This document shows positions 595-33,183 of a stretch of DNA of 64,000 bases, in pieces (position 1 is the first letter of the stretch; each line of letters starts with the position of its first letter). Both the position numbers and the translations under genes were made by a program. Under the pieces are notes generated by a model that saw only the letters and a list, made by a program, of their open reading frames with translations, searched no databases and had not been told where the DNA came from. Origin of the DNA: an uncultured Gammaproteobacteria bacterium (GTDB lineage: Bacteria > Patescibacteriota > Microgenomatia > JAUYPR01); the NCBI GenBank assembly GCA_964372495.1, contig CAYJQU010000001.1:2935-66934 (forward strand), in the 5' to 3' direction.

Positions 595-2726
595 GGAAGG
601 ATATTCTGTCTTTCCTGTTCATAGTGCTCTATGTAGCTGTTCTATTCTATCCGGTGGCATTGGGCCGGATACCGTTTCCCGCCGATTCGCTGTTAGGACT
701 GTACCATCCGTGGCGTGACGTAGTATGGGATGGGTATACTGCGGGGGTTCCATACCGTAATTTTCTTACAACCGACCCGATGCGGCAAACCTACCCGTGG
801 CGAGAGCTCAGCATCGAACTATGGAAATCAGGAGAAATACCGCTGTGGAATCCTTACAGCTTCACCGGTACGCCGCTTCTTGCAAATTATCAGTCGGCGG
901 TGCTCTACCCACTCAATAGCATATTCTTGCTTGGGGATTTTGCTCGTATGTGGGCGGTCTTGATTCTCCTGACGCCATTACTGTCTCTCTCATTTTTCTA
1001 CCTTTGGATGCGCAGTCAAAGGATTGGGTCGCTAGCTTCAATCCTCGGCGCGGTAAGCTATGGGTTTGGCGGATTTATGATGGGGTGGATGACGTGGGGC
1101 ACTATCGGTCACGTTGCCGCGTGGCTGCCACTCATGCTCCTTGCCATGAACAAATGGTTTGCAAGACCTCAATTTCGCTGGCTTTTTATCTATCTTTTCG
1201 CATCAGTCAGTTCGCTGCTGGCAGGTCACCTCCAATCCGCTCTGTATGTTCAAGCGGTAACGCTGCTCTACGGCGTCGTCGTTGTGCAGAACGTACGGCG
1301 GGTGCTGCTACTTTTGGCCATTCCGATACTCCTGGCGAGTGTTCAGCTACTGCCGACTGTAGAATTTTTATTGCAGTCTGCACGCTCGCAAGACATAACA
1401 GGGCTGCACGGATTTTTGCCCTATAAGCACTTAGTGATGTTTTTGATTCCTGACTTTTTTGGAAATCCAGCAAAACTCAACTACTGGGGAGAATGGAACT
1501 ATCTAGAATTTAATGGCTACATAGGCTTAATTCCGTTATGGCTTGCATTGATTGCCGCAAGGAGTGTACGGACAAGGCTTGTTGCATTTGCCGCTTTGTG
1601 CGTTGGCCTGAGTTTACTTTTTGCGACAAGTAAACCCCTTGGGCAGGTGTTTTCTTTTGTGCAACAGGCAGGCGCATCTCGATTGCTGCTTGTTACCAAT
1701 TTTGGCCTTGCGGTTCTCGCCGGCCTTGGTATGCAGGAGCTGGGTAAGCGGACACAGAGGCACTTTGGCGCATATGGTTTTCTTGTCGGCCTCTTTGGGC
1801 TAGTAGGACTTTTTATACTCTTTGGTTTCGTTACCCGAGCTCCTTGGATACAGAATTTGGGGGTGAGTCTACGTAACAGCGTAGTTCCTATAGCGCTACT
1901 TATACTGATCGGTTGTATAATGCTACTTCGCCCCAAAATACCTAATCGCGCAGTACCCACGATACTAGCGTTCTTGCTTGTTGTTACCGCTTTTGATTTA
2001 GGGCGTTACTTTCTTACTTTTACCCCGTTCTCGCCTGTTTCGTGGATGTATCCGCCGACTCGAGTGCTTGCGTATCTGCAGGCTGATCCTGAGCCTTTTC
2101 GGATAATGGCAACCGACCGCCGTCTCTTGCCCCCAAATGTATCCGTCGCCTATCGCTTAGCATCGGTAGAAGGCTACGATCCTCTGTATCTATCCGATTA
2201 CGGCCGCTATATAGCCCGCAACGAGCAAGGCAGAAGCGATAATCTATCGCTCCAGTTCCATCGCATCATTACCCCACAGCGCATCGATATAGATTTACCT
2301 AACAAGCTAAACGCGAAATATGTTCTCAGCCTGTCTCCTTTAAACAGCGATCAGTTTAAACAAGTGGTTCAGGAAGGAGAAACGAGGTTGTATCACAATA
2401 CGCAAGCGCTGCCGCGTGTGGATATTGACAGAGGGAAGGCTCGGCTCATTCACTATGGGGCTAACAAGGTCAAAGTTGCAGTGAGTTCAGGCGAACCTGC
2501 GACCCTAGTGATGCGAGATCCAGCTACCTTCGGCTGGCATGCGAAGGTTGATAACGATGAGGCACCTATACAGAAGATAGACGGATGGTTTCGAGCGGTG
2601 AATATGCCGGCTGGCGACCATACGGTGACCTTCTCCTATTGGCCGAAAGGGCTGACCCTGGGTATCCTTGGTGCCGTATTTGGCATCGTGCTACTGGAAG
2701 TGGCATTGTGGAGAAAATATCTATGA
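591..2726 (+). CDS. YfhO-family polytopic membrane protein (GT-C-like glycosyltransferase)
   Basis: 711 aa. N-terminal pattern FPADSLLGLYHPWR...LWNPYSFTGTPLLANYQSAVLYP is typical of YfhO. Many TM segments. C-terminal region is shared with the other YfhO paralogs in this window. Confidence 0.8.
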   Translation: MRKDILSFLFIVLYVAVLFYPVALGRIPFPADSLLGLYHPWRDVVWDGYTAGVPYRNFLTTDPMRQTYPWRELSIELWKSGEIPLWNPYSFTGTPLLANYQSAVLYPLNSIFLLGDFARMWAVLILLTPLLSLSFFYLWMRSQRIGSLASILGAVSYGFGGFMMGWMTWGTIGHVAAWLPLMLLAMNKWFARPQFRWLFIYLFASVSSLLAGHLQSALYVQAVTLLYGVVVVQNVRRVLLLLAIPILLASVQLLPTVEFLLQSARSQDITGLHGFLPYKHLVMFLIPDFFGNPAKLNYWGEWNYLEFNGYIGLIPLWLALIAARSVRTRLVAFAALCVGLSLLFATSKPLGQVFSFVQQAGASRLLLVTNFGLAVLAGLGMQELGKRTQRHFGAYGFLVGLFGLVGLFILFGFVTRAPWIQNLGVSLRNSVVPIALLILIGCIMLLRPKIPNRAVPTILAFLLVVTAFDLGRYFLTFTPFSPVSWMYPPTRVLAYLQADPEPFRIMATDRRLLPPNVSVAYRLASVEGYDPLYLSDYGRYIARNEQGRSDNLSLQFHRIITPQRIDIDLPNKLNAKYVLSLSPLNSDQFKQVVQEGETRLYHNTQALPRVDIDRGKARLIHYGANKVKVAVSSGEPATLVMRDPATFGWHAKVDNDEAPIQKIDGWFRAVNMPAGDHTVTFSYWPKGLTLGILGAVFGIVLLEVALWRKYL

Positions 2727-3631
2727 CTGTTATTATTCCGACGTTTAACGGGAAAGAACTTTTAGCAAAAAATCTTCCTCGTATAGTCAAAGCTTCCTCT
2801 GGTGCAGTGGTGATCGTGGTAGACGATGGGAGCACTGATGGCACAGGCCACTGGCTCTCCCAATACTTTCCGAAAGTCGGGATTATTACCCATGCGCGTA
2901 ATCATGGTTTTGCAGCTGCAGTGAACGCAGGAGTGCAAGCTGCCACAACGGATATAGTGGTACTACTCAATAATGATGCGATACCTCACGAGGGGTGGCT
3001 AAAGGCGCTGTCAAGACATTTTGATGACCCATATGTCTTTGCGGTTGGGTGCAGGGAGGAAACAGGCGACGGAGAGAAACGGGTCGTAAGTGGTCGAGGA
3101 GTAGGATACTTTTATCGAGGAACTCTGACGCACGCGCGAGGTATAGAAGGACCCTTCACCCTGTGGGCAAGCGGTGGAAGTGCAGCTTTCTCACGGAGGA
3201 AATGGCGCGAACTGGGCGGAATGGATACACTGTACGCGCCGTTTTACTGGGAGGACATTGATCTCTCCTATCGGGCCTGGAAGAGAGGATGGAGAGTCCT
3301 GTATGAAAAACGAGCGATTGTGACACATGTACATGAGCAGACTATTGGACGCAGGTATTCGCCGTTTTTTATCCGGGTGGTTTCGAGTCGTAATCTCTAT
3401 CTCTTCTTCTGGAAGAATATTACAGACATACGGTTATGGGTGGCGCATCTGACGTGGCTCCCGCTCCACTTGAGTGCGGCGCTTCGGAGGCGGGATGGGG
3501 CATATATCGTAGGATTTCTCTGGGCATGCTGGTATATACCTCTGGTGTGCGTTCGTCGACTGGGAATAGCAAAAGCGACGCGAAGCGACCAGGAAGTAAT
3601 CACACTACATCGTAAGCAAGAGGTTCGATGA
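2723..3631 (+). CDS. Glycosyltransferase family 2 (WbbL/rhamnosyltransferase-like)
   Basis: MTVIIPTFNGKELL...VVDDGSTDGT and the DAIPHEGW and YWEDIDLSYRAWKRG motifs. The ATG overlaps the upstream stop (ATGA). The ORF-track N-terminal extension (2585) would overlap the upstream gene, so it was not used. Confidence 0.8.
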   Translation: MTVIIPTFNGKELLAKNLPRIVKASSGAVVIVVDDGSTDGTGHWLSQYFPKVGIITHARNHGFAAAVNAGVQAATTDIVVLLNNDAIPHEGWLKALSRHFDDPYVFAVGCREETGDGEKRVVSGRGVGYFYRGTLTHARGIEGPFTLWASGGSAAFSRRKWRELGGMDTLYAPFYWEDIDLSYRAWKRGWRVLYEKRAIVTHVHEQTIGRRYSPFFIRVVSSRNLYLFFWKNITDIRLWVAHLTWLPLHLSAALRRRDGAYIVGFLWACWYIPLVCVRRLGIAKATRSDQEVITLHRKQEVR

Positions 3632-5316
3632 TAGGTTTGGTGAGGAAAGGTGGATTGCCTCTCGTTCTGATACTGGTTCTTGCCGTTATACTGCGGTTTG
3701 CACTGCTTGCTACGTACCCCCCTGCACTTTTTGTGGACGAGGCTGCGGTCGGATACAACGCATGGTCTCTTGCGCAGGATCTGCGAGACGAATACGGCAC
3801 TTTTTTGCCAGTTGCATTCAGGTCTTGGGGCACCTATACTGCCCCACTCCAATTTTACCTAGCGATACCCGGCGTACTACTGTGGGGTTTAAATGAGTAT
3901 GGGACTCGGTTTCACGCAGTCCTGCTGGGATCGGCGACGGTTCTCGTACTCTACGTACTGGTGTACCAGTGGTTTGGAAAACGCACGCTGGCCCTTTCCG
4001 CCGCTACCCTGCTCGCACTCTCTCCATGGCATATCCATCAGTCCCGCATGGCGGTTGAGTCCATTATCAGCACTTTTTTCTTTACTCTCGGTGTCTATTT
4101 TCTTGTTCGTTTTCGTGCGGCTTATAAGCTCTTGCCACTCGTAGCGGCTGCTATTTGCTTTGTCTTGACTACATACGCGTACCACTCTGCCCGTTTGACC
4201 GCGCCTTTGTTTTTGTTTCTCTTTATGGTGCTGTATCGAAAGGAGTTGTGGCGGCAGCTGCGGAACGTTCTTATTGCCGCTTTAGTGGGTATTGTGATTG
4301 CATCACCGTTACTGTGGTATGTAATTACCCAACATAATCAAGCGCTGGCGCGGCCTCGTGCCATAAGTAGTATTGGTAATCCTGGTATCGGATTGCAGCT
4401 ATGGGAGTGGACTACAACTGATGGTCCGACTCACCCGTCCTTTTTGACCCGTGCCTTCCATAATAAAGCAGTGTTACATCTGGAGGATTTTTTCCGCCGA
4501 TATCTTTCTCATTTTGATCCCTCATTTTTGTTTATCAGAGGAGATCCACATGAGCGATTTCAAATTCCGAACATAGGCATTCTCTTGTTCATTGGTCTCC
4601 CACTAGTTTTGGTTGGGTTTTTGTCCCTATTTCGCTTTTATCCTGGCAAGGACAGATTATTACTTGTTGGCTGGATAATGCTTCCTCCTGTGGTTTCCTC
4701 ACTTGCGGTTATCACGCCGAATTCCTATCACATGCTCGAGGCAGCTCCTGCCTGGGCAATTCTGATGGCTATGGGTCTATCGATGTGGCTCCGTTTCCTC
4801 AAGCCTATACTGCCGTCCACTGCTCACATCGCTCTTGCATTACTGCTTACCGCCAATGTCTTGTATTATCTCGGGGTATATTACACGGTACTCCCCTATC
4901 AGTTGGCACACTTTTGGGCGTACGGTTTCAAAGAAGGTGTGCTTGCCGTAAAGGAGCTTGAGCGCGGGTACGATACAGTCGTATCGGCAAATCGGCACTA
5001 TATCTATTTTCTTTACTACCTCAGGTATAACCCAAGACGATTTCGTCTCGAGTATGAAAGGGCTCCCGGTGTTGATGAAAATGGATTTGAGCATATCGTT
5101 GCATTTGGCAAGTTTGTGTTTCCAAAAGACTTTAACTGGGAACAGATGCCAAAGCGTCCAGGTATCCTCTACATGGCACCACGCCATCAAATTCCCGACT
5201 ACTGGACGGATGACCCGGAAGGAAGTGGCCTGCGTCGCAACAAGGTTAGGATACTCAAGAAGATATACTTTCCCAACGGGGAGGTTGCGATGAAGGTAGC
5301 AGATGTTATTGAGTAA
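3628..5316 (+). CDS. PMT_2/ArnT-like GT-C membrane glycosyltransferase (GT39/GT83-like), paralog 1
   Basis: 562 aa. N-terminal TM, then loop motif FVDEAAVGYNAWSL...DEYGTFLPV, then SPWHIHQSR. Polytopic. ATGA overlap with the upstream gene. Confidence 0.75.
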   Translation: MIGLVRKGGLPLVLILVLAVILRFALLATYPPALFVDEAAVGYNAWSLAQDLRDEYGTFLPVAFRSWGTYTAPLQFYLAIPGVLLWGLNEYGTRFHAVLLGSATVLVLYVLVYQWFGKRTLALSAATLLALSPWHIHQSRMAVESIISTFFFTLGVYFLVRFRAAYKLLPLVAAAICFVLTTYAYHSARLTAPLFLFLFMVLYRKELWRQLRNVLIAALVGIVIASPLLWYVITQHNQALARPRAISSIGNPGIGLQLWEWTTTDGPTHPSFLTRAFHNKAVLHLEDFFRRYLSHFDPSFLFIRGDPHERFQIPNIGILLFIGLPLVLVGFLSLFRFYPGKDRLLLVGWIMLPPVVSSLAVITPNSYHMLEAAPAWAILMAMGLSMWLRFLKPILPSTAHIALALLLTANVLYYLGVYYTVLPYQLAHFWAYGFKEGVLAVKELERGYDTVVSANRHYIYFLYYLRYNPRRFRLEYERAPGVDENGFEHIVAFGKFVFPKDFNWEQMPKRPGILYMAPRHQIPDYWTDDPEGSGLRRNKVRILKKIYFPNGEVAMKVADVIE

Positions 5317-6952
5317 GGTGGTCACGCGTTCGTCGGCGCTAGTGGTGATTCTTAGTGCAGCCGTGATCCTCCGTTTTGTCGGCCTTGCAAACCATCCTCC
5401 TCTCTACACAGATGAGGCATCGCTTGGGTATAGCGCGTATAGTATTTTGCGCACCGGAGCCGATGAATTTGGACAGAAGTTGCCGGTCAGCCTCCGTTCA
5501 TTTGGCGATTACAAACCGCCGCTGTCGGCATATTTGATGATTCCGGGCATTGCCGCTTTTGGACTCTCAACGACTACCATTCGTTTACCATCGGCCATTA
5601 CTGGTATTGCCACCATCGTGCTCGTGTATTTACTCGTGAAGCTATTGACCGGGAACTCTGCGCTGGCACTTGGTAGCGCTTTTGTGCTGACATTTTCTCC
5701 TTGGCATATTCACCAGTCCCGTATGGCAATGCTTGTGGGTAACACACTCTTCTTTTTCGTGGCCGGGGTGTACACGTGGCTAAAGGGTGCGCGCGACCCG
5801 CGGTGGTATATCCTGAGTGCAATTTCCTTCGCACTGTCCATATATGGATACTATGGCATGCGTGTTGTCGTGCCGCTCATGCTGGGAGCGCTTGTGGTTT
5901 TATATCGTCGAGAGATTGTACGAGGGTGGCGATGGGCGGGCGGCTCGGCTGTTGTATTTATTGTCCTGCTGCTGCCCCTTACGATGCAATTTTTAGGCAA
6001 TAGCGAGGTGCTGTTTGGTAGAGCCCGACATGTGAGCCTGTTTGCTGATGAGGGTGTGCAGCTCAGACTGTGGGAGGCAGCAAGTACCGATGGGCAGCTG
6101 CACCCACTGGTAAGCAGGGTGTTTCACAACAAACTGATCGCGTATGCTGAGGATGCGGTGCGCAGGTTCTTTTCTCATTTTGAGATTGAGTATCTCTTTG
6201 TACGTGGAGACAGGGCTGAGCCTTTTGAGGTTCCAGGAATTGGCCTCTTGTGGCTGTTTGAGTTTCCGTTGGTGTTGGTTGGAATACACGCGCTGAGAAA
6301 GCATAAGAAATTACTACTGCTTGCCTTATTCTGGCTTGGCCTCCACGTATTACCGGCGGCCCTGACGTTTGTAACGCCTGCCTCAAATCGCAGTTTCGGT
6401 GCGGTCGTACCTCTTGCTATCTTTACGGGCGCAGGGGTAGCTGCAGTGGTTTCGAAAAAGCGTATGATACTTCCCTTGATACTACTGCTGTGGTTGGCGG
6501 GTTTAGTCTATGCCGCAAAACAGTATATAATCGTGCTCCCCCGTGATATAGGCCCGCGGGTATATAGTGCAAGCTTTGTGGGCGCAGACAAGCTGGCCGA
6601 GTATCGCAATCGGTATGACCGCATCGTGATTTCTGAACGGGCCAGACTTCCCTACGTACATCTATTGGTACGTTACCAATATGACCCGTGGCGGCTGCAG
6701 CAGGAATTACAGATTAAACCAGGAGTGGATCAGTTCGGCTATGAGCATGTGGACCGGTTCGGCAACATCCAGTACCGGCAGGACGTACTCTGGGAGCGAG
6801 AGAGGATCACCGGGACTACTCTCTATGTAGCGGCTCCACAGGAGGGATTGCCCCGCAGCGAATATCGTCCGAGAGTGCTTACAGAGATACGCTATGAATC
6901 GGGAGACCAGGCTATGCGATTTATCGAAGTGCAACCAATGGAATTAAAGTGA
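5303..6952 (+). CDS. PMT_2/ArnT-like GT-C membrane glycosyltransferase, paralog 2
   Basis: 549 aa. YTDEASLGYSAYSILRTGADEFGQKLPVSLRSFGDYKPP and SPWHIHQSR. Tandem to paralog 1. The start may alternatively be the GTG at 5318. Confidence 0.75.
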   Translation: MLLSKVVTRSSALVVILSAAVILRFVGLANHPPLYTDEASLGYSAYSILRTGADEFGQKLPVSLRSFGDYKPPLSAYLMIPGIAAFGLSTTTIRLPSAITGIATIVLVYLLVKLLTGNSALALGSAFVLTFSPWHIHQSRMAMLVGNTLFFFVAGVYTWLKGARDPRWYILSAISFALSIYGYYGMRVVVPLMLGALVVLYRREIVRGWRWAGGSAVVFIVLLLPLTMQFLGNSEVLFGRARHVSLFADEGVQLRLWEAASTDGQLHPLVSRVFHNKLIAYAEDAVRRFFSHFEIEYLFVRGDRAEPFEVPGIGLLWLFEFPLVLVGIHALRKHKKLLLLALFWLGLHVLPAALTFVTPASNRSFGAVVPLAIFTGAGVAAVVSKKRMILPLILLLWLAGLVYAAKQYIIVLPRDIGPRVYSASFVGADKLAEYRNRYDRIVISERARLPYVHLLVRYQYDPWRLQQELQIKPGVDQFGYEHVDRFGNIQYRQDVLWERERITGTTLYVAAPQEGLPRSEYRPRVLTEIRYESGDQAMRFIEVQPMELK

Positions 6953-8619
6953 GGTACGCGACACTTTGGCTGGTGGGCATTACGATGCTGGGAGCACTCG
7001 TGCGCCTTGCCTACCTTGGGGAGATACCTGCAGGGATAAACAATGATGAGGTGTCGCATGGCTACAATGCGTACAGTATTCTGACCACAGGGAAAGATGA
7101 GTGGGGTAAACCGTGGCCTATAACATCGTTTACCGCATTTGGCGATTACAAACCGCCGGTCTATATTTACCTCACGACAGTTTGGGTTTGGCTATTTGGT
7201 CTTTCTTCTTTTTCAACACGCCTTACATCGGCTCTGGCAGGCATCATTGCAATTCCCCTCGTATTTCTTCTTGTACAGAGGTTCTATGGCAACCGCGTGG
7301 TCGCTTTTATTGCAGCATTGTTTCTGGCGATTTCTCCCTACCATGTCTTTATAAGTCGCAAGGCTGCTGAAAACAACCTTGCGATAACATGGGCACTTGT
7401 GGGTACTTATGCGTTTGCTCGAGCACAAAAGCACGTGGCTTGGCTGTTTGCATCTATGGGGTTTTTCTTACTGATGGCATTTACGCACACCCCTGCTCGT
7501 GGCTTTGCCTTGTTGCTAGTTGCCTGTTTGCTTGTTTTGTATGGTAGGCCACTTTTTGTCCGAGAGAAGTGGAAAATGCTTGTCGCGGTGTCTCTTTTTT
7601 TCCTTCCCACGCTTTCTCTGTTTGCAAGCTGGGAGGGGCAGGCCAGATTGTATCAGAGTACGGAGTATGTTACTCGGGGCCTCTATGCTCGGTTGGATGA
7701 AACACGAGCTGCTTGCCAAAGCTTCGCTCCCCCTTCTGTTTGCCAAATTGCATTTAATAGGCCGACCGCCCGCGTGTGGGATGTACTGGAGAACTACGTA
7801 TCCCACTTTAGTACGAGAACGCTGTTTGTTATTGGTATTCGTAAGTTTGATGCTGGTGATTTGCGCGAACTTGATACGTATGTGTTATCAGGACATGGAC
7901 TATTTTATCTTTTTGGCTTGCCGCTGTTCTTCCTTGGCCTCTACTGCCTGGCACGACAGCTGACAAAGAAAAAAGGGCTGTTTTTGGCCTGGCTTTTGCT
8001 GTCTCCTATCCCTGACAGCTTAACTAGCCCAGGACATGCTAGTCGTATGACAACAATGATCCCCTCGATCGAGATTATCTGCGCGATTGGCTTATGGCAG
8101 TTGTCTGTTTGGATACGATATGTGCGTTTGAAAGCGCTACAGTATGTAGTATATTGTGTACTTGCGGCAGTAGTGGCTGTTAGTGTAACTCGTTTTTTAA
8201 TCACCTACCGCCATTACAGCGATTATGCCTCACGCGCGTTTAAGTTTGGCTACGCCGAGTTGTTTCAATATCTTTCAAACGTAGAGGATCGATATAATCG
8301 AATTTGGATATCCTCGTACTATGGGGAACCGTACATCTACCATCTCTTTTTTCAGCGCTACGCGGCAGACAAAATACATGATACGTCACATATTGACCGT
8401 GTCTGGGTTGCTGATGATCAAGCAGGCGTTTGGTCGCAGGTTTCTCGTATTGGCAAGTACCGGTATGTTTCAGAAGTGGAAGCAAAGGATGTAGGTCTGT
8501 CTGACTTGGTTGTAAATGGCCCGTTTGGTGGTCCGAGGGACGGCAATCTTTTACATGTGGTGCGCGATAAACGTGGCGACGGTGTATTCTATATTTATGA
8601 AGCAAAGCAACGAAACTAA
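6949..8619 (+). CDS. PMT_2/ArnT-like GT-C membrane glycosyltransferase, paralog 3
   Basis: 556 aa. NNDEVSHGYNAYSILTTGKDEWGKPWPITSFTAFGDYKPP and SPYHVFISR. GTG start overlapping the upstream stop (GTGA). Confidence 0.75.
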   Translation: MRYATLWLVGITMLGALVRLAYLGEIPAGINNDEVSHGYNAYSILTTGKDEWGKPWPITSFTAFGDYKPPVYIYLTTVWVWLFGLSSFSTRLTSALAGIIAIPLVFLLVQRFYGNRVVAFIAALFLAISPYHVFISRKAAENNLAITWALVGTYAFARAQKHVAWLFASMGFFLLMAFTHTPARGFALLLVACLLVLYGRPLFVREKWKMLVAVSLFFLPTLSLFASWEGQARLYQSTEYVTRGLYARLDETRAACQSFAPPSVCQIAFNRPTARVWDVLENYVSHFSTRTLFVIGIRKFDAGDLRELDTYVLSGHGLFYLFGLPLFFLGLYCLARQLTKKKGLFLAWLLLSPIPDSLTSPGHASRMTTMIPSIEIICAIGLWQLSVWIRYVRLKALQYVVYCVLAAVVAVSVTRFLITYRHYSDYASRAFKFGYAELFQYLSNVEDRYNRIWISSYYGEPYIYHLFFQRYAADKIHDTSHIDRVWVADDQAGVWSQVSRIGKYRYVSEVEAKDVGLSDLVVNGPFGGPRDGNLLHVVRDKRGDGVFYIYEAKQRN

Positions 8620-9316
8620 CAAGCGGACAGTATCGTTGGTATTTCCGGCATTTAACGAGGAGGCCAATATTGCCCAGGCGATTGCCGAGTTTAAGAGGGC
8701 CCATCGGTTTGACGAAGTTGTAGTAGTCGATAATAACTCAACGGATGCAACGGTAAAGCTTGCGCAAGCGCATGCCCGAGTTATGAAGGAGGAGAGACAA
8801 GGATTTGGGTGGGCGGTACGTCGAGGGCTGGCTGAGGCGCGAAGTGAGCTTATTGTCCTTGCCGAACCGGACGGCACATTTGTTGGGAGAGACGTGCATA
8901 AGCTGTTGGCGTACGCGGACGATTTTGACCTGATAATTGGGACGCGCACTACAAAGGAGCTTATTTGGGGGGAGGCGAATATGGGATGGTTCTTGCGAAT
9001 TGGAAATATAATAGTTGCCAAGTTCATTGAGGTATTGTTTTCCGGTCCCTCGCTATCAGATTGTGGTTGCACGCTGCGCCTTATTAGGCGGGACGCTCTT
9101 GGCAAAATAGCACCATATTTTACTGTGGGAGGGTCGCATTTTCTTCCTGAGATGGTGATACTGGCTCTTCAGCATAACTTGCGGGTAATCGAGATACCAG
9201 TTAACTACCGCACGAGGATAGGCGCTTCAAAAATTACTGGTTCCACCTGGCGCGCGTTTTGGGTTGGTATAGGTATGATTACCCTTGCACTCCGTTGCAG
9301 GCTATTTGGCAGATGA
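8597..9316 (+). CDS. GT2 polyprenyl-phosphate sugar synthase (Dpm1/DPM-synthase-like)
   Basis: MKQSNETNKRTVSLVFPAFNEEANI...VVVDNNSTDAT...AEPDGT. This is the typical Dpm1/ArnC/GtrB architecture. The in-frame ATG at 8597 overlaps the upstream gene by about 23 nt. Confidence 0.7.
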   Translation: MKQSNETNKRTVSLVFPAFNEEANIAQAIAEFKRAHRFDEVVVVDNNSTDATVKLAQAHARVMKEERQGFGWAVRRGLAEARSELIVLAEPDGTFVGRDVHKLLAYADDFDLIIGTRTTKELIWGEANMGWFLRIGNIIVAKFIEVLFSGPSLSDCGCTLRLIRRDALGKIAPYFTVGGSHFLPEMVILALQHNLRVIEIPVNYRTRIGASKITGSTWRAFWVGIGMITLALRCRLFGR

Positions 9317-10158
9317 AATGTGGCATTTGCCGTGCCGGCAGGCTCAATGTAGTTTTTTTGTTAAACGAGAACCAGTCACTATACGATTGTCGGGAATGTG
9401 GCGTTCGGCAGCTCCTTCCGCAGAGAGTAGTCCGCGGTGATTATAGGGAGTCATATTACGATTATTACGGACGAGGCTTGCAGTCGGATGGCGCTCTTGT
9501 ACGGCTGAAAGTACTCACGTACTCCAGGATGCTACGGAAACTGGCTACCTACGTACAGCCAGGCACGCTTCTTGACATAGGATGTGGGTTGGGTCATGCG
9601 ATGAAAGTTGCGAAGGAACTTGGCTGGCGCGTAGTGGGCACGGAATTTTCTCCTGACGCAGCGCGTCTTGCACGAAGGTATACTGACTCACCCGTATATA
9701 TGGGAGACGTACGTTCTCTCAACACGTTCGCCTCGTTTGATGCGATTACCCTATTTGACGTAATCGAGCACTTACCAGATCCAAAACGGGCTCTTGCGCA
9801 CGTCAGTATGTTATTGAAGTCTCATGGGGGAGTGTTGATTGTTACGCCGGATGTAGCCAGTTTATCTTCGAGACTGATGGGCAAAAGGTGGAATCACTAT
9901 CATCCCGACCATTTGTTTTATTTTGACCGCCACTCCATCCAGCAGGTAATTCCAAAAAGTTTGACCATCAGAAGCATTATGCCAACAGTCAAGCTGTTTA
10001 ATCTTGCGTATATCCACGGCTACTTTATGCAATATCCAACTATTGGTTTTACACAGCTTGCGCGCTTTCTCTATGCGGTACTTCCGCAATCAGTACGCGA
10101 GTTTCCCTTTGCGATGCAATCTGGTAGCATGATGGTCATAGCACAAAAAGAACAATGA
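9313..10158 (+). CDS. Class I SAM-dependent methyltransferase with N-terminal Zn-ribbon (CxxC...CxxC)
   Basis: MKCGICRAG...CRECG, then LLDIGCGLGH (SAM motif I), FDAITLFDVIEHLPDP, GGVLIVTPD. ATGA overlap. Paralog of the 58736 gene. Confidence 0.7.
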   Translation: MKCGICRAGRLNVVFLLNENQSLYDCRECGVRQLLPQRVVRGDYRESYYDYYGRGLQSDGALVRLKVLTYSRMLRKLATYVQPGTLLDIGCGLGHAMKVAKELGWRVVGTEFSPDAARLARRYTDSPVYMGDVRSLNTFASFDAITLFDVIEHLPDPKRALAHVSMLLKSHGGVLIVTPDVASLSSRLMGKRWNHYHPDHLFYFDRHSIQQVIPKSLTIRSIMPTVKLFNLAYIHGYFMQYPTIGFTQLARFLYAVLPQSVREFPFAMQSGSMMVIAQKEQ

Positions 10159-11423
10159 AACGTGTAGTTCTTATTGCGATAGTCGTAAGCGGGGCTGCCT
10201 TACGATTGCTCTGGCTTGACTCTTTGCCAGCGGTGGTGACTAACCACGAAGCTACGGTGGCTGTACATGCCTGGAGAGGGAATTTCCGATTATGGTGGGT
10301 AGGAGAAGAGATCGTTTCGCCGGTCCCATGGTTGCTTGCGACCGCCTCTCTTAAGCTATTTGGCTTGTCAACTTTTGCCTTGCGTTTGCCTATAGCGTTA
10401 GCGGGCATATTGTCCGTATATCTCCTGTATCGTCTTGCTCGGCGGTGGTTTAACGAAAACGGAGCGCTCGTTGCAGCAGCAATACTTGCTTTAGCACCAT
10501 GGCATGTGCATCTGTCACGGTTTTTTATCGAAGAGGTAATATTGCTTGCAGCAGTGCTTGCCCTGCTGGTGGGAGTAGCAGAACGGCGTATGTGGGCAAC
10601 GAGCATCGCCGTAGTAGCGGTTATTTTTTCATCATGGCACTGGCTGGATAGACTCCGTGTGGCGATGGTTGATGGTGTTGCTTTGTGGTTTCTCAACATT
10701 TTCAAATACCTTTCATTCGACTGGCTCTTCTTTAGGGGTGATAAATATGTTTTACACGGAATTGGCGATTTAGGGCAGTTGTATACGCTCCTTATTCCGT
10801 TTTTCCTTATTGGCTTATTTGTCTGCTGGGAACGGAAGATAGGAAGGGTAGTATTGCTACTTACGGCAGTGTTTGTTGCAGCTGCCTCGCTTTCACGCTT
10901 TTCTCCAGAGGCACGAGCATCGCTGCTTGCAGCACCATGGATAATGCTCATTATTGGGACTGGCGCTGATAGGAGTGTCTCGTGGACCCGAAAGAAACTG
11001 CCCCGCGTATTTCCTCTCATTGCTCTTGTATTCGGTGCTGTAGCCTTGTACCAAGTTATTTCCTATGTACACTTCTATACAGTTCATTTTGGCAAGCGCT
11101 CGGGATCGGAGTGGTCTTTCGTGTATAAGCAGGTAGCGCCCTTTGTAGCAGGAGTGTACGACCAGTATGATCAAATTGTTGTGTCCAGTCACTACGGGGC
11201 TGCAGCAGAGCAAATGATGTTCCATGCACCCGGCGATTCACCAATTAAAAGTGGGGAAGCTGTCAAAATACACTATGGCACACCGGAGAAACTTGATGCT
11301 ATAGGGCCGAACACCTTGCTGGTCCTTGAACAGCATCTTAAGCCAGGTAATGCGGTGAAACTGAAGGAGTTTAGGCTCGCAAACGACATCACCGCCATGG
11401 TGGCATGGGAGACGCAGCGTTAG
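10155..11423 (+). CDS. Divergent, short PMT_2/ArnT-like GT-C membrane protein (catalytic DE motif degenerate)
   Basis: 422 aa. Retains APWHVHLSR, but the loop motif reads VTNHEATVAVHAW instead of DE..GYNAYS. ATGA overlap. Confidence 0.6.
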   Translation: MKRVVLIAIVVSGAALRLLWLDSLPAVVTNHEATVAVHAWRGNFRLWWVGEEIVSPVPWLLATASLKLFGLSTFALRLPIALAGILSVYLLYRLARRWFNENGALVAAAILALAPWHVHLSRFFIEEVILLAAVLALLVGVAERRMWATSIAVVAVIFSSWHWLDRLRVAMVDGVALWFLNIFKYLSFDWLFFRGDKYVLHGIGDLGQLYTLLIPFFLIGLFVCWERKIGRVVLLLTAVFVAAASLSRFSPEARASLLAAPWIMLIIGTGADRSVSWTRKKLPRVFPLIALVFGAVALYQVISYVHFYTVHFGKRSGSEWSFVYKQVAPFVAGVYDQYDQIVVSSHYGAAAEQMMFHAPGDSPIKSGEAVKIHYGTPEKLDAIGPNTLLVLEQHLKPGNAVKLKEFRLANDITAMVAWETQR

Positions 11424-11425
11424 GC

Positions 11426-11899
11426 ATGCAGAACAACGATTGTATTTTTTGTCGAATCGTATCGGGCGAGGCTCCGGCTCACATTGTATGGGAGGATGAG
11501 AAGCATCTTGCGTTCCTCTCAATATTTCCAAATACGGAGGGCTTCTCAGTAGTTGTTACAAAGCAGCACTATCCAAGTTACGCGTTTGATCTGCGTGATG
11601 AAATTCTGTGTGGTCTGATTGTTGCAGCTGGGAGGGTCGGAAAATTGCTAGACGCAAGTTTCGAAGATGTGGGACGCACCGGCCTTATTTTTGAGGGCTT
11701 CGGTGTTGATCACGTCCACGCAAAACTGTTCCCGATGCATGGAACTGAGCTATCTTCCTGGAAACCGCTCAAGTCAAGTGTTAATAAATACTTTGATCGA
11801 TATGAAGGATACATCTCTTCCCACGACTGCAAGCGGGCTGATGATCAGAAACTTGCAAACCTCGCACGCAAGATTCGGGAGAAGAACCAACTAAAATGA
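11426..11899 (+). CDS. HIT (histidine triad) family nucleotide hydrolase/transferase
   Basis: MQNNDCIFCRIVSGE... and the HIT motif GFGVDHVHAKLFP. The ATG lies 2 nt after the upstream stop. Confidence 0.75.
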   Translation: MQNNDCIFCRIVSGEAPAHIVWEDEKHLAFLSIFPNTEGFSVVVTKQHYPSYAFDLRDEILCGLIVAAGRVGKLLDASFEDVGRTGLIFEGFGVDHVHAKLFPMHGTELSSWKPLKSSVNKYFDRYEGYISSHDCKRADDQKLANLARKIREKNQLK

Positions 11900-11991
11900 T
11901 TCAAATCAATTAAGCAGATTCATGTGATACATATTGTTTGTTACTAGTGAGCTGAGTGATGTTGTAGGGTGTGGTAAAGTACGAGGACCAC

Positions 11992-14418
11992 ATGGCTCGG
12001 GAACGTGATGCACTCTGGATTTTCGGATTAATCTTCCTCGTAATCCTTTTCTTCTGGCCGGTGTTTCTGCAGGGCAATGTAGCTATGAATGGTAACAATC
12101 TGATGAGCTCCTTTGTGCCGTGGCGGTATGAAGAGCACCAGGGGCGAGCGGCCGCTCCATTTGCCAAGCCCGGCATGCTCGATCAATTGCGTTTGTATAT
12201 TCCGTACCTCACCTTTATGCAACGGGAGTTCCGGGCTGGCAGCATTCCCTTGTGGAATCCACACAATTTCTCAGGTACTCCTCTGGTGGCCGAGCTGCAA
12301 TCTGCTGTGTTTTACCCAACCAATATACTACTACTCTTTCTCTCGGTTCCTAACTACTGGAATACGCTTATTATACTCGGATACATCTTAGCGGTTATTT
12401 TTACCTATCTTTATGTCCGTTCGTTGAATCTTGGGCCACCGTTTGCCGCATTTTCTGCAGTGGTATTTGCGTTTTCAAGCTTTATGGTGGCGTGGAGCCA
12501 AGAGGTACTCATGGCAATACATTCGATTGCGTGGCTACCATTGCTTCTGCTTGCCACGGATAGATTCTTAGCGCGTCAGGACCGAAAGTGGTGGGCCGTA
12601 TTCGTTTTTGGATGTACAATGTCATTACTGTCCGGGTATCTCCAAACGAGCCTCTACGTGTTTCTATTTGTGTTCGCATATATGCTGTGGCGGTCTCGGC
12701 GTGGCGGCTTTCGGCTGGGCGTCTTACTCATGTTTGGGATGATGATAGCAGTAGTTGTCAATGCATTGCAGTTTTTACCTGCGCATGAGTTGTATGCACT
12801 TTCGTCACGTAAAATAGTTGATGTGCGTTCCATGTTATCGCACTATCTTCTACAAGTTCCCTGGCTTATCACGTACGTCTTCCCTGATTTTTTTGGACAT
12901 CCAACAACGAGAAATGAAACGCTGTCGTTTGTTGGGACATACTATGAACGTGCGCTCAGCATAGGCACGCTACCAGTTCTGCTTGCATTATTTGCTGTAG
13001 TAACCCGCAAAAAATCTAAGAATCCACGCATTGTTGGTTGGTATGGATTCCTCTGGTTGATTACCCTTTCGCTTTCTTTGCAACTGCCCCTATCGTATCT
13101 TCTTTTTCATCTCGATGTTCCATTCTTTGCAACAGGGATTAGCAACCGCATTCTCTTTTTATCAGCCTTTTGCGGCAGTGTCTTAGGGGCATACGGTCTG
13201 CATGCGGTAGCTAACCAGAAGAGCAAAGCTTTATGGATAACGTTACTTTTTATTCCCTTGTGCTTGGGGATATTCATATGGTGGTATTCTCCGACAACGG
13301 AGCTCCCTAGTATTCGTCGTGATTGGCTTCTTGTTGCAAGAAGGAATGTGATTGTACCAATAGGCCTTGTTATGATCGCGCTTGCCGCGACAGTTCTCTT
13401 TCGGAAACGCATTGGCGCTGCAGTAACTTTACTCTTAATACTGACTCTATTGCAGATCTATTACGGATTTGCCAAATTTATGCCGTTTGCCGACCGGCGG
13501 TATTTCTATCCAACTCACCCCGTGATTGAAGCAATTTTTCAACGTACTGCTTCTTCCTACGAGCGATTTTGGGGATATGGTGGATCGACTTTTGACTATC
13601 CCGGCGCATATATTGAGAATAACTTGGCTACCTCGTTTGGTATTTATGCTGCCGAAGGCTACGATTCTCTCCATGATCATCGGTATGGTCAGTTACTCTT
13701 TGCGGCCTCTAACGGGAGGGTACAAACCAATTTGTCTCGTTCAGATGCGGTGCTGGAACGAGCTCCTGATGTGAACCGTACCTTTACCGCACAAACGAAC
13801 CGTCTTCGCCTGCTTGAACTCCTGGGCGTACGATACATTATCGACCGCGATGAGGAGGCGCCCCGTGCCTCATATCAGGATCCAAAGCGATTTGATAGTA
13901 AAATGTTTGCTAAAGTGTGGCAAGAAGACCTGTGGCGCATCTTTGAGTTTCAGCGAGCCCTTCCACGGGCGTGGTTAGTAGGGAAGGTTTTTATAGCGAG
14001 CTCGGATCAGGAAGTTGTTGACAGGATTCTCGATACTTCGTTTGACCTGCGCAAAACAGTTGTGGTGCAAGAGCCGCTGACTGGAGATACGCTTGCGGAA
14101 TCTGCGGTAGGCAGTGCTCGCATAACTCAGTATCAATCCAGAAGAGTGGTGATCGAGACAGTTGCTGACGCAACCCAGCTTTTAGTGCTGACCGACACCT
14201 TTTTTCCGGGATGGAAAGCGCACGTGGACGGTTTGCAGGTCAAGATATATCGCACTAATTTTGCATTCCGCGGTGTTGTGGTGCCAGGAGGCACTCACAC
14301 GGTGGTTTTTTCTTATGAACCCGAGTCCTTTGAGCGAGGAAAAGAGTTTACTCTACTAGGTGTGGTACTTTTCGCCGTTACATATATCGGCTTACCGAAA
14401 ATAGAGAGAAAGAGATGA
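11992..14418 (+). CDS. YfhO-family polytopic membrane protein, paralog 2
   Basis: LWNPHNFSGTPLVAELQSAVFYP and the C-terminal TDTFFPGWKAHVDGLQV...VVFSYEP. The alternative GTG start at 11971 is possible. Confidence 0.8.
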   Translation: MARERDALWIFGLIFLVILFFWPVFLQGNVAMNGNNLMSSFVPWRYEEHQGRAAAPFAKPGMLDQLRLYIPYLTFMQREFRAGSIPLWNPHNFSGTPLVAELQSAVFYPTNILLLFLSVPNYWNTLIILGYILAVIFTYLYVRSLNLGPPFAAFSAVVFAFSSFMVAWSQEVLMAIHSIAWLPLLLLATDRFLARQDRKWWAVFVFGCTMSLLSGYLQTSLYVFLFVFAYMLWRSRRGGFRLGVLLMFGMMIAVVVNALQFLPAHELYALSSRKIVDVRSMLSHYLLQVPWLITYVFPDFFGHPTTRNETLSFVGTYYERALSIGTLPVLLALFAVVTRKKSKNPRIVGWYGFLWLITLSLSLQLPLSYLLFHLDVPFFATGISNRILFLSAFCGSVLGAYGLHAVANQKSKALWITLLFIPLCLGIFIWWYSPTTELPSIRRDWLLVARRNVIVPIGLVMIALAATVLFRKRIGAAVTLLLILTLLQIYYGFAKFMPFADRRYFYPTHPVIEAIFQRTASSYERFWGYGGSTFDYPGAYIENNLATSFGIYAAEGYDSLHDHRYGQLLFAASNGRVQTNLSRSDAVLERAPDVNRTFTAQTNRLRLLELLGVRYIIDRDEEAPRASYQDPKRFDSKMFAKVWQEDLWRIFEFQRALPRAWLVGKVFIASSDQEVVDRILDTSFDLRKTVVVQEPLTGDTLAESAVGSARITQYQSRRVVIETVADATQLLVLTDTFFPGWKAHVDGLQVKIYRTNFAFRGVVVPGGTHTVVFSYEPESFERGKEFTLLGVVLFAVTYIGLPKIERKR

Positions 14419-22325: not shown

Positions 22326-22327
22326 GT

Positions 22328-28536: not shown

Positions 28537-28542
28537 AGGCGT

Positions 28543-29250: not shown

Positions 29251-29251
29251 G

Positions 29252-30259: not shown

Positions 30260-30260
30260 T

Positions 30261-31563: not shown

Positions 31564-33183
31564 GTGCACGCACGCTATCTTATTCTGATTCTCTTAGTGG
31601 CAGCGATTCTGCGGTTTGCGGCCATGGCAGTCATTCCTCCTGGGCTGGATTGGGATGAGGCGGCGGTAGGATATAACGCGTACAGTCTTCTGAAGACCGG
31701 CCGTGATGAATACGGCACTTTTTGGCCGCTCCTGTTTCGCTCCTTTGACGATTATAAGCTGCCAGCCATCGTGTACCTTACCGTGCCGAGTGTAGCGCTT
31801 TTTGGCTTAAATGCGTTTGCTGTCCGATTTCCCTCTGCCCTATTGGGAGTGGCTAGCGTCGGCCTTGTATATATACTGGCGAAAGAGATAACTGGTAAGC
31901 GAAAGGTTGCACTCCTTGCGTCACTGCTGATGGCTATCTCGTCCTGGCATCTCCATTTTAGCCGCGTTGGGTTTGAGCCGAATGTGGCGTTCTTTTTCGT
32001 GTTACTGGGAATTACTTTTATTCTGAGACGAGGGGACAGTATGACGGGGTGGCTTTTCGGGGCCGCTAGTTTCGCCCTGAGTTTATATAGCTACCACGCC
32101 ACAAAGATAATTGTTCCTCTCTTGCTGCCGCTTCTTATTTGGTATAAGGCTGGAGGTCCCAAATCAAGGGGTACACAATACATCGCCATGGTGATTACCG
32201 GGGTAAGTGTATTATTTGCACTGACGCTGCCGCTTTTGCTGGTGAGCACAAGTAAAGAGAGCCAATCGAGGCTTGCCCAAACCGGCTTTGTCAATCACCC
32301 GACCATTATCGAGTCGCTCAACCAAAAGATTGGCGAGGATCGTTTGGGAAAGGGAATACTACCTGCCCTCTGGCATAATCGCCTACAAGCGTATGGGGAA
32401 GCGTTCATCAATCGGTACCTTGCCCACCTATCTCCACAGTTTCTTGTTGGGGGAGAGCAACTCAATTTCCGACTCGGACTAAAAGATGCAGGGAAACTTT
32501 CGCTCCCCACGTTTTTCTTTCTTGCCTGGGGTCTCTTCCGTCTTGGAAGGCTTGGTCGAAGGAAGGCAGCATTATTACTTTCCTGGCTCGGTATTGGACT
32601 ACTTCCCGGAGCGGTTGGGGTTGAGTATCCGCACGCGCTGCGGGCGCTGAATGCAGTTGCACCCATGACTATTGTAGCGGCGTGGGGCTTATGGTGTATA
32701 GCGGAAGCAGCGCGAAGAAGATGGCGCTTTATTGCCCTGGCCAAGTTTGGCTTGACACCAGCGGTTCTTACTGCGGTAGTTGCGTTTAGTACAGTACAGT
32801 ATCTCCATGAGTATTACGTCCACTTTCCACTGTATGGCGGCTTTGACTGGCAGGCCAGTCACAGAGAGATGGTACAAGAAGTAGAACGACAGCGGATCCA
32901 TTTTGACCGAGTTGTGGTAAGTACGAAGTTCTTTAGGCCACATATCTTTTACGCGTTCTACACCAAGATGGATCCGGGTTCCTATCAAACCCAGGTAGGA
33001 GATAACCTCGATGTCGTGAGGCTCTACAATATAGAATTTCGTCGCATCGAGTGGCTTGCTGATCAGGAGCATACTAACACCTTGCTGGTTGCAACGGAAA
33101 CTGATGTTCCGAAGGGTGTAGAGGTAATCACCACCATTCATTTTCCCGATGGTGGAGAAGCATTTCGGTTCATTGCGCTATGA
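31564..33183 (+). CDS. PMT_2/ArnT-like GT-C membrane glycosyltransferase, paralog 7
   Basis: DWDEAAVGYNAYSLLKTGRDEYGTFWPLLFRSFDDYKLP and SSWHLHFSR. GTG start immediately after the upstream TAA. Confidence 0.75.
   Translation: MHARYLILILLVAAILRFAAMAVIPPGLDWDEAAVGYNAYSLLKTGRDEYGTFWPLLFRSFDDYKLPAIVYLTVPSVALFGLNAFAVRFPSALLGVASVGLVYILAKEITGKRKVALLASLLMAISSWHLHFSRVGFEPNVAFFFVLLGITFILRRGDSMTGWLFGAASFALSLYSYHATKIIVPLLLPLLIWYKAGGPKSRGTQYIAMVITGVSVLFALTLPLLLVSTSKESQSRLAQTGFVNHPTIIESLNQKIGEDRLGKGILPALWHNRLQAYGEAFINRYLAHLSPQFLVGGEQLNFRLGLKDAGKLSLPTFFFLAWGLFRLGRLGRRKAALLLSWLGIGLLPGAVGVEYPHALRALNAVAPMTIVAAWGLWCIAEAARRRWRFIALAKFGLTPAVLTAVVAFSTVQYLHEYYVHFPLYGGFDWQASHREMVQEVERQRIHFDRVVVSTKFFRPHIFYAFYTKMDPGSYQTQVGDNLDVVRLYNIEFRRIEWLADQEHTNTLLVATETDVPKGVEVITTIHFPDGGEAFRFIAL

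Follow-up and report, generated by a model that had tools for sequence, protein, structure and literature searches.

Genes at the locus

The window analysed here, a stretch of 64 kb taken as a whole, is a glycosylation island in which nearly all genes lie on the + strand. It represents more than 60 kb of a cell-envelope glycosylation island of a Microgenomates bacterium (candidate phyla radiation, CPR/Patescibacteria). Near its start, a run of overlapping genes (2585-11899) encodes three consecutive membrane-embedded glycosyltransferases (GT) of the GT-C fold, here named g3628, g5303 and g6949 after their first positions, and a fourth, shorter paralog, gene 10155. The three long proteins are Microgenomates-specific members of an ArnT/PMT-like GT-C family. 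Gene 10155 is a rare reduced offshoot of this canonical family, and its possible role is the main subject of this text. The genes of the run are listed below, with their scores against Pfam and, where given, against a hidden Markov model (HMM) of the family.

2585..3631, +, GT2 glycosyltransferase of the general type with one C-terminal hydrophobic segment (Pfam Glycos_transf_2, 1.8e-27)
3628..5316, +, GT-C paralog A (g3628), 562 residues (Pfam PMT 32.1, cut-off 22.7; PMT_2 26.4, cut-off 26.1; family HMM 566 bits)
5303..6952, +, GT-C paralog B (g5303), 549 residues (Pfam PMT_2 46.8)
6949..8619, +, GT-C paralog C (g6949), 556 residues (Pfam PMT_2 43.7; family HMM 489 bits)
8597..9316, +, soluble Dpm1/ArnC/AglJ-like GT2, 239 residues, no hydrophobic segment (true start about 8597)
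9313..10158, +, class I S-adenosylmethionine-dependent methyltransferase, 281 residues, with an N-terminal CxxC...CxxC zinc ribbon (Pfam Methyltransf_23/11/12)
10155..11423, +, reduced GT-C paralog (gene 10155), 422 residues (Pfam PMT_2 46.9, over profile positions 4-112 of 160 only)
11405..11899, +, HIT-family protein, 164 residues (Pfam HIT, 1.4e-8)

All four GT-C proteins of the run (3628, 5303, 6949 and 10155) score above the Pfam gathering threshold of PMT_2 (PF13231) or PMT (PF02366), which was taken as the mark of membership. An earlier note on this DNA had described the three long paralogs as consecutive genes with ATGA or GTGA overlaps. They are indeed consecutive and overlapping, with a GTGA at the 5303/6949 junction, but g3628 and g5303 overlap by 14 nt and not by an ATGA. 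An ATGA is shared by the stop of the first GT2, which opens the coupled run, and the start of g3628. The methyltransferase has an ATGA overlap on both sides, one of them with gene 10155, whose stop in turn overlaps the HIT gene by 19 nt.

The canonical paralogs and their active site

The canonical genes of the window are ordinary new members of a family type that is already known. The AlphaFold2 (AF2) model of g5303 (predicted local distance difference test, pLDDT, 95.3; predicted template modelling score, pTM, 0.93) contains 11 transmembrane (TM) helices. The first periplasmic loop is folded into two helices and a hairpin, TM7 is followed by a long loop of about 85 residues, and the C-terminus forms a periplasmic alpha/beta domain. 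Its top Foldseek matches are the ArnT structures 5EZM and 5F15 (E 3e-8), followed by AglB, STT3, PglB, Pmt4 and ALG12. Both g5303 and 10155 have a polytopic core with the GT-C helix arrangement, at a Foldseek probability of 1.00 (targets ArnT, STT3, AglB, PglB, ALG12 and Pmt4). ArnT is also the sole significant hit (E 8.5e-5) of the family profile among PDB sequences. Neither protein belongs to the NCBIfam equivalog of Pmt (NF058602, cut-off 800 bits), against which g5303 scores 22.7 bits and 10155 gives no hit.

In the profile alignment, the Lys of the YKPP motif (family K71) corresponds to ArnT K85, and the Glu of the family consensus SR.A.E to ArnT D158, a residue that lines the substrate cavity. 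Equivalents of ArnT D55, K85 and D158 are present in the canonical paralogs, and the K203 column is occupied by Tyr or Phe. In g5303 all family-invariant residues are present; it reads SRMAML, with a Leu at the D158 column. The conservation of the main positions was tabulated over 281 full-length members from 73 species loci:

D37, 271 of 272 aligned members
E38, 272 of 272 aligned members
D54, 267 of 271 aligned members
K71, Lys or Arg in 258 members
R94, 274 members
R140, 275 members
R240, Arg or Lys in 269 members
R363, 264 members

These eight positions offer targets for mutagenesis in a family that is uncharacterised. All six canonical window paralogs (3628, 5303, 6949, 20691, 22322 and 31564) keep D37, E38, D54, R94, R140 and R240, and so carry the Asp in the first long extracytoplasmic loop that is typical of GT-C enzymes. 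The second D-E pair (D54/E55) is intact in g3628, g5303 and g6949, as is K71 in g5303 and g6949. The loop and SPWH motifs that had been quoted for the array are approximate, as g3628 reads SWGTYTAP (Lys to Thr) and g6949 reads SPYHVFISR. In g3628, K71 is changed to Thr and R363 to His, and the same pair of changes is found in its orthologue on a related contig (L002, 3474-5150). This pairing hints at a joint action of K71 and R363, perhaps on the phosphate of the donor, and g3628 may use a different donor.

Losses and retained features of gene 10155

The product of gene 10155 is 127-140 residues shorter than those of 3628, 5303 and 6949. The earlier description of a protein about 130 residues shorter that keeps APWHVHLSR and has NHEA in place of the family D-E is thus accurate: where the other paralogs read ..DEA, gene 10155 reads VVTNHEA. 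It had been left open there that the D-E motif might merely be shifted. A shifted motif could be rejected, as the alignments and the ungapped offset from a conserved Pro place H31 on the Asp column (D37) and E32 on the Glu column (E38). Throughout the 10155 clade the Asp column holds this His, which is preceded by N30, and no Asp is found nearby. Gene 10155 therefore lacks the first-loop Asp of GT-C enzymes. The acidic pair as a whole had been reported as lost; only its Asp is gone, while the Glu, which does not vary among the aligned full-length members (279 of 279), is kept.

Further losses accompany that of the Asp. The first extracytoplasmic loop (EL1) is shortened, and D54/E55, P61 and K71 have disappeared with it, while Y77 has become Leu. 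TM6-7 and the N-terminal half of the long loop EL4 are deleted (185 to about 275 in g5303), including R240 and H275-N276. R363 is replaced by Ala, with an Arg (R254) one residue earlier. Of the four ArnT residues D55, K85, K203 and D158, only the last has an equivalent in gene 10155 (E126). Retained are E38 (as E32), R94, the PWH..SR motif (R140), this E126, the GD motif, the conserved glycines and the C-terminal periplasmic domain.

The structure prediction that had been suggested as a check yields a confident GT-C-fold model (pLDDT 95.4, pTM 0.93). The model is consistent with 9 TM helices plus the C-terminal domain, and its Foldseek matches are GT-C structures (ALG12, ArnT and STT3). Of the long loop, whose N-terminal half is deleted, about 50 residues with short helices (161-210) remain between two TM helices. 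The short paralog is a new variant within the known GT-C fold family.

Two other relatives in the family, P0011 (413 residues) and P0129, also lack the Asp and read S-E in one case and T-E in the other. Like gene 10155, P0011 is a shortened protein without the second D-E and the Lys of KPP. Judged from these sequences, the Asp may have been lost more than once near the 10155 clade.

Selective constraint on gene 10155

The 10155 clade consists of three protein clusters in 5.8 billion sequences (100, 68 and 55% identity), all with the same architecture. An exhaustive search of 1.84 billion representatives returned one at E 3e-252, followed by the next at 1e-39. No relative of the 10155 protein was found among species-representative genomes, because the clade is too rare. 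The orthologues are 421 and 417 residues long and derive from independent assemblies (SRR22388331 and SRR22387936). On the corresponding contigs, L003 and L002, the order g6949, GT2, methyltransferase, short GT-C is conserved.

Between the window and L002 the synonymous sites are saturated (proportion of synonymous differences 0.72-0.88). The ratio of nonsynonymous to synonymous rates (dN/dS) was taken from the closer L002-L003 pair, and nonsynonymous differences and identity were followed by region. Gene 10155 has a dN/dS of 0.21, with 0.14-0.32 for the neighbouring genes, and the dN/dS test that had been proposed earlier thus points to purifying selection. For the window and L002, EL1 and the EL4 remnant share 65 and 64% identity, and for the window and L003 78 and 82%; the other regions reach 44-54% and 51-75%, respectively. 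The canonical g5303 displays the same pattern (EL1 86%, EL4 72%). Invariant in the loops of the 10155 clade are VVTNHEA, GEE.VSP.PWLL and FFRGDKY, and the clade has conserved charged residues of its own there (E51-E52 and R194-G-D196-K197). Since the loops are the most conserved parts, carry clade-specific invariant residues and belong to a gene with this dN/dS, the periplasmic face of the protein appears to be remodelled and functional rather than relaxed.

The L002 and L003 contigs share about 90% DNA identity up to about codon 90 of the methyltransferase. Beyond this point it is about 55-70%, both in the remainder of the methyltransferase and in the 5' part of the adjoining 10155 orthologue, before it rises again to 84-97% at the 3' end of the latter. 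The divergent block (L002 about 9480-10520 against L003 about 3966-4994; window equivalent about 9650-10690) looks like a recombination or allele replacement joining both genes.

Mini GT-C proteins

A second class of reduced proteins, of about 290 residues, occurs in 24 species loci, mostly of Gottesmanbacteria, as the second gene of the array. Examples are:

L004, 6922-7770
L005, 9893-10777
L007, 9039-9974
L012, 9112-9981
L014, 9091-9969
L023, 9115-9978

No such mini GT-C copy was found in the window. Only three parts of the mini proteins match the family HMM: TM1, TM2-5 and the region that runs from the end of the long loop up to the last TM helix. TM1 is joined almost directly to the RLPSA helix, leaving no EL1 and no D-E. 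They share the gap of gene 10155 at TM6-7 and the N-terminal part of EL4 and lack the C-terminal domain, while R94, PW and R140 are kept. Their mean summed BLAST scores are highest with the 10155 clade and near relatives of it, at 44-64 bits, and reach 12-38 bits with the full-length genes of their own arrays. Because they lack EL1, the mini proteins cannot be conventional GT-C transferases, and non-catalytic GT-C derivatives thus appear, from these alignments, to be a recurrent component of Microgenomates arrays.

Age and distribution of the array

For the locus search, an alignment of 68 sequences proved too divergent and was replaced by a closer one. The family HMM was run over 77 sources (73 species-representative loci, the contigs L001-L003 and the window) and retrieved 326 open reading frames (ORFs). 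At least three family copies within about 20 kb were found in 60 of the 77 sources, with up to nine copies, usually head-to-tail and with overlapping stops and starts. The earlier note had considered the repeated adjacent duplication of GT-C genes unusual. In Microgenomates it is not, as arrays of three to nine copies are the rule; elsewhere, mycobacteria offer a classical example in the three adjacent GT-C genes of embCAB (PMC2885622).

The window paralogs are only 28-38% identical to one another at the protein level, and each is nearer to proteins of other species' arrays (35-44%) than to its neighbours. g3628 is 58.6% identical to its L002 orthologue and 35% to g5303, while g6949 is 65-66% identical to its L002 and L003 orthologues. 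No DNA repeats were found between the window paralogs beyond an exact match of 23 nt and a match of 76 nt at 75%. The same array recurs in independently assembled relatives. L002 (SRR22387936), the longest related contig, has the order YfhO, GT2, three PMT_2 genes, GT2, methyltransferase, short PMT_2. The shorter L003 (SRR22388331) reads g5303 (partial), g6949, GT2, methyltransferase, short PMT_2, YfhO. Orthologues of the window genes on these two contigs are 54-73% identical. L001 (ERR3478686) carries a 10155 gene identical to that of the window and is for this reason probably from the same organism.

A recent duplication or an assembly repeat was therefore rejected on three grounds: the low identity, the lack of DNA repeats and the closer kinship with genes of other species. 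The concern that the paralogs could be assembly artefacts is likewise answered by the recurrence of the array in independent assemblies. By these sequence comparisons, 3628, 5303 and 6949 diverged anciently and the array is real and typical of its lineage.

Named database relatives are proteins of Candidatus Gottesmanbacteria and the 'Patescibacteria group', annotated as glycosyltransferase family 39. Of the records with a specific organism name, nearly all come from the Microgenomates radiation (Gottesman-, Levy-, Curtiss-, Collier-, Roizman-, Shapiro- and Chisholmbacteria). The titles of a few name Jorgensenbacteria, Saccharibacteria or Limnocylindrales, and those of many are generic or placeholders. 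Many loci with typical Microgenomates GT-C arrays (L005, L006, L010, L013, L014 and others) bear the record title 'uncultured Gammaproteobacteria' or 'uncultured Pseudomonadales bacterium'; judged by the content of the loci, this taxonomic labelling appears to be wrong or to consist of placeholders. The searchable library yielded no specific literature on GT-C arrays of Microgenomates or CPR bacteria. Long, translationally coupled ArnT/PMT-like arrays are thus a signature of Microgenomates envelopes, pointing to a complex, still uncharacterised extracytoplasmic glycan.

Possible roles of gene 10155

The Asp that gene 10155 lacks is described as catalytically essential across GT-C enzymes, and both D128A and D128N of AftA are dead (PMC10265970). 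In ArnT, D55, K85 and K203 are functionally essential, and substitutions of D55 lose function (PMC8698208). A further GT-C trait is a long extracytoplasmic loop that connects two distal TM helices and gates the donor, and the N-terminal part of this loop becomes ordered upon donor binding in ArnT, PglB and Emb (PMC10265970). Canonical catalysis by gene 10155 is doubtful because the Asp, the Lys equivalent to K85 and the N-terminal part of the long loop are missing at once. The residues thus make the loss of canonical transferase chemistry likely. With pseudoenzymes gene 10155 shares the loss of invariant residues (D37, D54, K71, R240 and R363) under purifying selection (dN/dS 0.21). The earlier suggestion of a non-catalytic paralog gains from losses that exceed those listed at the time (D54/E55, P61, K71, R240, TM6-7 and half of the donor-gate loop), and a non-canonical, possibly non-catalytic role is reasonable. 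It is weakened by the retained Glu and by the fact that inactivity does not follow from the loss of the Asp alone.

We tentatively favour, at somewhat under even odds, a selectively maintained, re-purposed GT-C with a non-canonical role in handling the donor, be it binding, presenting or translocating it. Gene 10155 would no longer perform the canonical transfer of the family. It would instead handle a lipid-linked and possibly methylated sugar made by the GT2 and the methyltransferase encoded upstream of it, and would bind, present or translocate that sugar for the catalytic GT-Cs. Several points weigh against this proposal. In the Pmt of Streptomyces coelicolor, D113N and E114A are active while D113A and D113E are inactive (PMC8698208). 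By analogy with the active D113N, a carboxylate is not always required at the position of the loop-1 Asp. The family-invariant Glu of the D-E pair is kept, and a His can act as general base. The clade also has its own conserved loop residues (E51-E52 and R194-G-D196-K197), and it retains the periplasmic C-terminal domain, which is not obviously needed by a pure flippase. K71 seems not to be indispensable in the family, because the otherwise canonical g3628 has a Thr there, and R254, one residue from the R363 column, may substitute for R363. Finally, the match to TIGR03663/Agl23 is weak, with 37.4 bits for 10155 (residues 5-141) and 41.2 for g5303 at a cut-off of 126.25.

In a different explanation, gene 10155 is an active GT-C with a remodelled, compact site. 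H31/E32, and perhaps E51/E52 and the RGDK loop, would then replace the D-E/D-E/K set, and the enzyme would transfer a sugar of different chemistry, such as a methylated one, from a donor that the neighbouring GT2 and methyltransferase provide. This has about one chance in three in our estimation. Such an enzyme would account for E32 at a family-invariant position, for the clade-specific invariants (VVTNHEA, GEE.VSP.PWLL and FFRGDKY), for the C-terminal periplasmic domain of the AF2 model and for the dN/dS of 0.21. The EL1 and EL4 remnants are the most conserved parts of gene 10155, as in the canonical g5303, and conserved remodelled loops fit a working rather than a decayed site. Between L002 and L003, the 3' part of the methyltransferase has diverged jointly with the 5' part of 10155, in a single block, and this suggests that the two genes share a specificity. 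The activity of Pmt D113N also speaks for a working site (PMC8698208). However, five of the most invariant polar residues (D37, D54, K71, R240 and R363) are changed or deleted together. The nearest reduced relatives, the mini proteins, have no EL1 altogether, and we know of no GT-C enzyme with a His at the position of the loop-1 Asp. The change of Asp to Ala or Asn kills AftA and substitutions of the Asp kill ArnT (PMC10265970, PMC8698208), while the part of the long loop that is ordered by the donor is missing (PMC10265970).

It is unlikely that gene 10155 is a non-catalytic structural or regulatory subunit without donor handling, paired with a catalytic GT-C paralog in the manner of Pmt1-Pmt2 or EmbA-EmbB. 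Translational coupling with catalytic paralogs in one operon and the conserved synteny would agree with such a partnership, and GT-C hetero-dimers are known (PDB hits 6p25 and 7bvf; PMC2885622). Yet the known heterodimers consist of two catalytic subunits, the periplasmic loops and not the TM surfaces of 10155 are most conserved, and the R94, R140 and E126 motifs, which face the lipid, have been preserved. PIGU, a non-catalytic subunit with GT-C fold, does appear among the weak structural hits (7w72_U and 7wld_U). That the gene is a decaying pseudogene, or that it is an assembly or annotation artefact in an array of collapsed or expanded repeats, is effectively refuted and hardly deserves further weight. 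Its shorter length compared to the paralogs and its missing catalytic residues could have indicated decay. The ORF is intact, however; orthologues of the same architecture exist in SRR22388331 and SRR22387936 and an identical gene in ERR3478686. The dN/dS of 0.21 and the AF2 pLDDT of 95 also speak against it, as do paralogs of 28-38% identity without DNA repeats between them.

The donor-handling reading can be extended to the mini proteins. The 10155-type proteins (about 420 residues, His-Glu) and the far more widespread minis (about 290 residues) would then form one lineage of GT-C derivatives that have abandoned transferase chemistry. They would serve the catalytic GT-C arrays of Microgenomates, bacteria with minimal genomes, by flipping the polyprenyl-phosphate-sugar or as a subunit that presents this donor, and would replace flippases of the GtrA, SMR or MATE type. 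This wider proposal is speculative, with perhaps a one-in-five chance. It is worth testing because of the Agl23 precedent discussed below and because no GtrA, SMR, MATE or Wzx family was found among the scanned window ORFs (those of at least 150 residues and not inside a longer ORF). Between 2.5 and 12 kb there is likewise no intergenic gap big enough for a small flippase gene. The membrane crossing of lipid-linked sugars is poorly resolved, and CPR bacteria lack many of the standard genes of envelope biogenesis. If the donor-handling role is correct, the reduced proteins would give structural work a minimal GT-C core of natural origin, with 9 TM helices or a length of about 290 residues.

Partner genes and other content of the window

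The neighbours of gene 10155 had been named earlier as a Dpm1-like synthase and a Zn-ribbon methyltransferase, and Pfam, NCBIfam and PDB matches and the translation agree with this. The best NCBIfam matches of the GT2 at 8597-9316 are AglJ, dolichyl-phosphate hexose transferase, PpgS and ArnC, near full length and all below the curated cut-offs, and its PDB sequence matches are ArnC and DPMS. Within the module this GT2 is the best conserved gene (73% identity with L002), and it probably serves as polyprenyl-phosphate-sugar synthase making the lipid-linked donor. Two further GT2 enzymes (23974-24693 and 35749-36423) have the same best matches, again all below the curated cut-offs. The methyltransferase (true start 9313, translation MKCGIC...DCRECG) has a conserved position in L001-L003. 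The first GT2 of the run (2585..3631) has an orthologue at the same position in L002 and gives only sub-threshold NCBIfam hits. The HIT gene is missing from L003, where YfhO directly follows the 10155 orthologue, and is probably not a core part of the module.

According to Pfam, the window encodes ten PMT_2/PMT proteins (3628, 5303, 6949, 10155, 20691, 22322, 24698c, 31564, 38913 and 41948), four YfhO proteins (591, 11971, 14415 and 16750), two PTPS_related membrane proteins and one TMEM260-like membrane protein with a weak, sub-threshold score. The YfhO, PTPS_related and TMEM260-like genes are all of GT-C type. Many GT2 and GT4 enzymes, sugar-nucleotide genes and several methyltransferases are also present. 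Of the four more family copies that had been counted in the earlier note, 20691, 22322 and 31564 are true members. Gene 41948, without a significant BLAST hit or a hit of the family HMM, was rejected as a family copy and is only a distant PMT_2 protein. Two further PMT_2 genes had been missed, as had the four YfhO genes, the two PTPS_related genes and the TMEM260-like gene. The features outside the coupled run are:

591-2726, YfhO protein
11971-14418, 14415-16787 and 16750-19260, translationally coupled YfhO tandem, a second paralog array that flanks the PMT_2 array
19329-20654, -, protein of 441 residues, no significant Pfam match, about 9 or more hydrophobic segments, conserved in L001
20691-22325, +, canonical paralog (Pfam; family HMM 598 bits), in tandem with the next
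22322-23977, +, canonical paralog (Pfam; family HMM 592 bits)
23974-24693, +, Dpm1-like GT2 that follows the paralog pair
24698-26407, -, further PMT_2 gene, missed earlier
26210-27910, +, membrane protein of 566 residues, no significant Pfam match, faint PTPS_related match
31564..33183, +, seventh family member, 539 residues (Pfam; family HMM 559 bits), canonical site intact
38913-40394, further PMT_2 gene, missed earlier
54844-56454, -, PTPS_related membrane protein of a second module
56461-57996, -, TMEM260-like membrane protein of the second module
58003-58692, -, GT2 of the second module
58736-59602, +, Methyltransf_23 paralog of the Zn-ribbon methyltransferase, second module
59612-61507, +, protein of 631 residues, no significant Pfam match, no hydrophobic segment

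The best matches of the pair 20691/22322 are the terminal pair of other species' arrays. The 441-residue protein could be a flippase, polymerase or ligase. Directly upstream of 31564 lies a run of genes (27928-31563) for a SIS isomerase, a nucleotidyltransferase, a GHMP kinase, a HAD phosphatase and a second nucleotidyltransferase, which we take to resemble an NDP-heptose pathway of the GmhA/HddA/GmhB/HddC type. The second module (54844-59602) is divergently arranged and resembles that of gene 10155. A tRNA scan found none, and a promoter and terminator scan of 1-20 kb was uninformative, with counts at or below the shuffled expectation.

Comparison with known systems

The closest structural relative is ArnT (GT83) of Cupriavidus metallidurans (5EZM/5F15), the top match of g5303 and the second-ranked match of 10155. 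The likeness comprises the GT-C fold, an Asp shortly after TM1, the K-P-P motif of the first loop (K71, ArnT K85), an acidic residue after TM3 (family Glu, ArnT D158), the long donor-gate loop and the C-terminal periplasmic domain. The sequence identity, however, is 13-14% and TM-scores are about 0.5. ArnT has 13 TM helices, compared to 11 (canonical) or 9 (10155) in the models, its K203 aligns with an aromatic residue, and 10155 has no equivalents of D55 and K85. To our knowledge, these Microgenomates organisms are not known to have lipid A.

With the PMT/Pmt enzymes (GT39) the family shares Pfam PMT/PMT_2 scores above the gathering threshold and the loop-1 'DE motif', for which mutagenesis data exist from yeast Pmt1 and from the Pmt of Mycobacterium tuberculosis and S. 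coelicolor (PMC8698208). The family differs in having no MIR domain and in a structural overlap with Pmt1/2/4 that is limited to about 220-270 columns in most matches.

The organisation of the window is best compared to the three-component systems (GtrA/GtrB/Gtr*, ArnC/ArnEF/ArnT and GT136), where a GT2 makes the polyprenyl-phosphate-sugar and a GT-C uses it outside the membrane (PMC11127046). Dpm1/ArnC-like GT2s also adjoin GT-C genes in the window. In contrast to these systems, no GtrA, SMR or MATE was found among the scanned ORFs, there are many GT-Cs per synthase instead of one, and a methyltransferase is interposed; the identity of the synthases is at family level only, below curated cut-offs. 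By this analogy, we infer a three-component periplasmic glycosylation that would have been expanded into an assembly line. Dpm1/ArnC-like GT2s, such as that at 8597-9316, would make the donors in the cytoplasm by charging polyprenyl phosphate. Each canonical GT-C, specific for a linkage or an acceptor of its own, would then move a sugar from a polyprenyl-phosphate-sugar onto an extracytoplasmic acceptor, so that the diverged enzymes would add sugars in series outside the membrane.

A tandem of three paralogous GT-C enzymes is also found in embC-embA-embB. There, and in the Aft/Mpt sets, paralogous GT-Cs have distinct roles in making an extracytoplasmic polysaccharide from polyprenyl-phosphate-sugar, and some form heterodimers (PMC2885622, PMC7305291). 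The Emb proteins (GT53) differ by their large carbohydrate-binding C-terminal domains, are a remote structural match only, and all three keep the catalytic Asp, unlike gene 10155.

For a GT-C scaffold without transfer, two precedents can be named. PIGU, a subunit of the glycosylphosphatidylinositol transamidase, has the GT-C fold, binds the lipid substrate and has no transferase activity. It is eukaryotic, and its match to 10155 is very weak (E 0.26-0.64, TM-score about 0.33) and without sequence similarity. The PMT_2-like Agl23 (TIGR03663) of Haloarcula hispanica is a proposed hexose-phosphate-dolichol flippase, and the purified protein translocates lipid-linked oligosaccharide in liposomes (PMC11182771). 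Agl23 is archaeal and the TIGR03663 match to 10155 and g5303 is non-specific; it nevertheless offers the precedent of a GT-C-like protein that acts on a lipid-linked sugar without transferring it. If gene 10155 indeed handles the donor, its GT-C scaffold would be the bacterial counterpart of the archaeal Agl23 and the eukaryotic PIGU.

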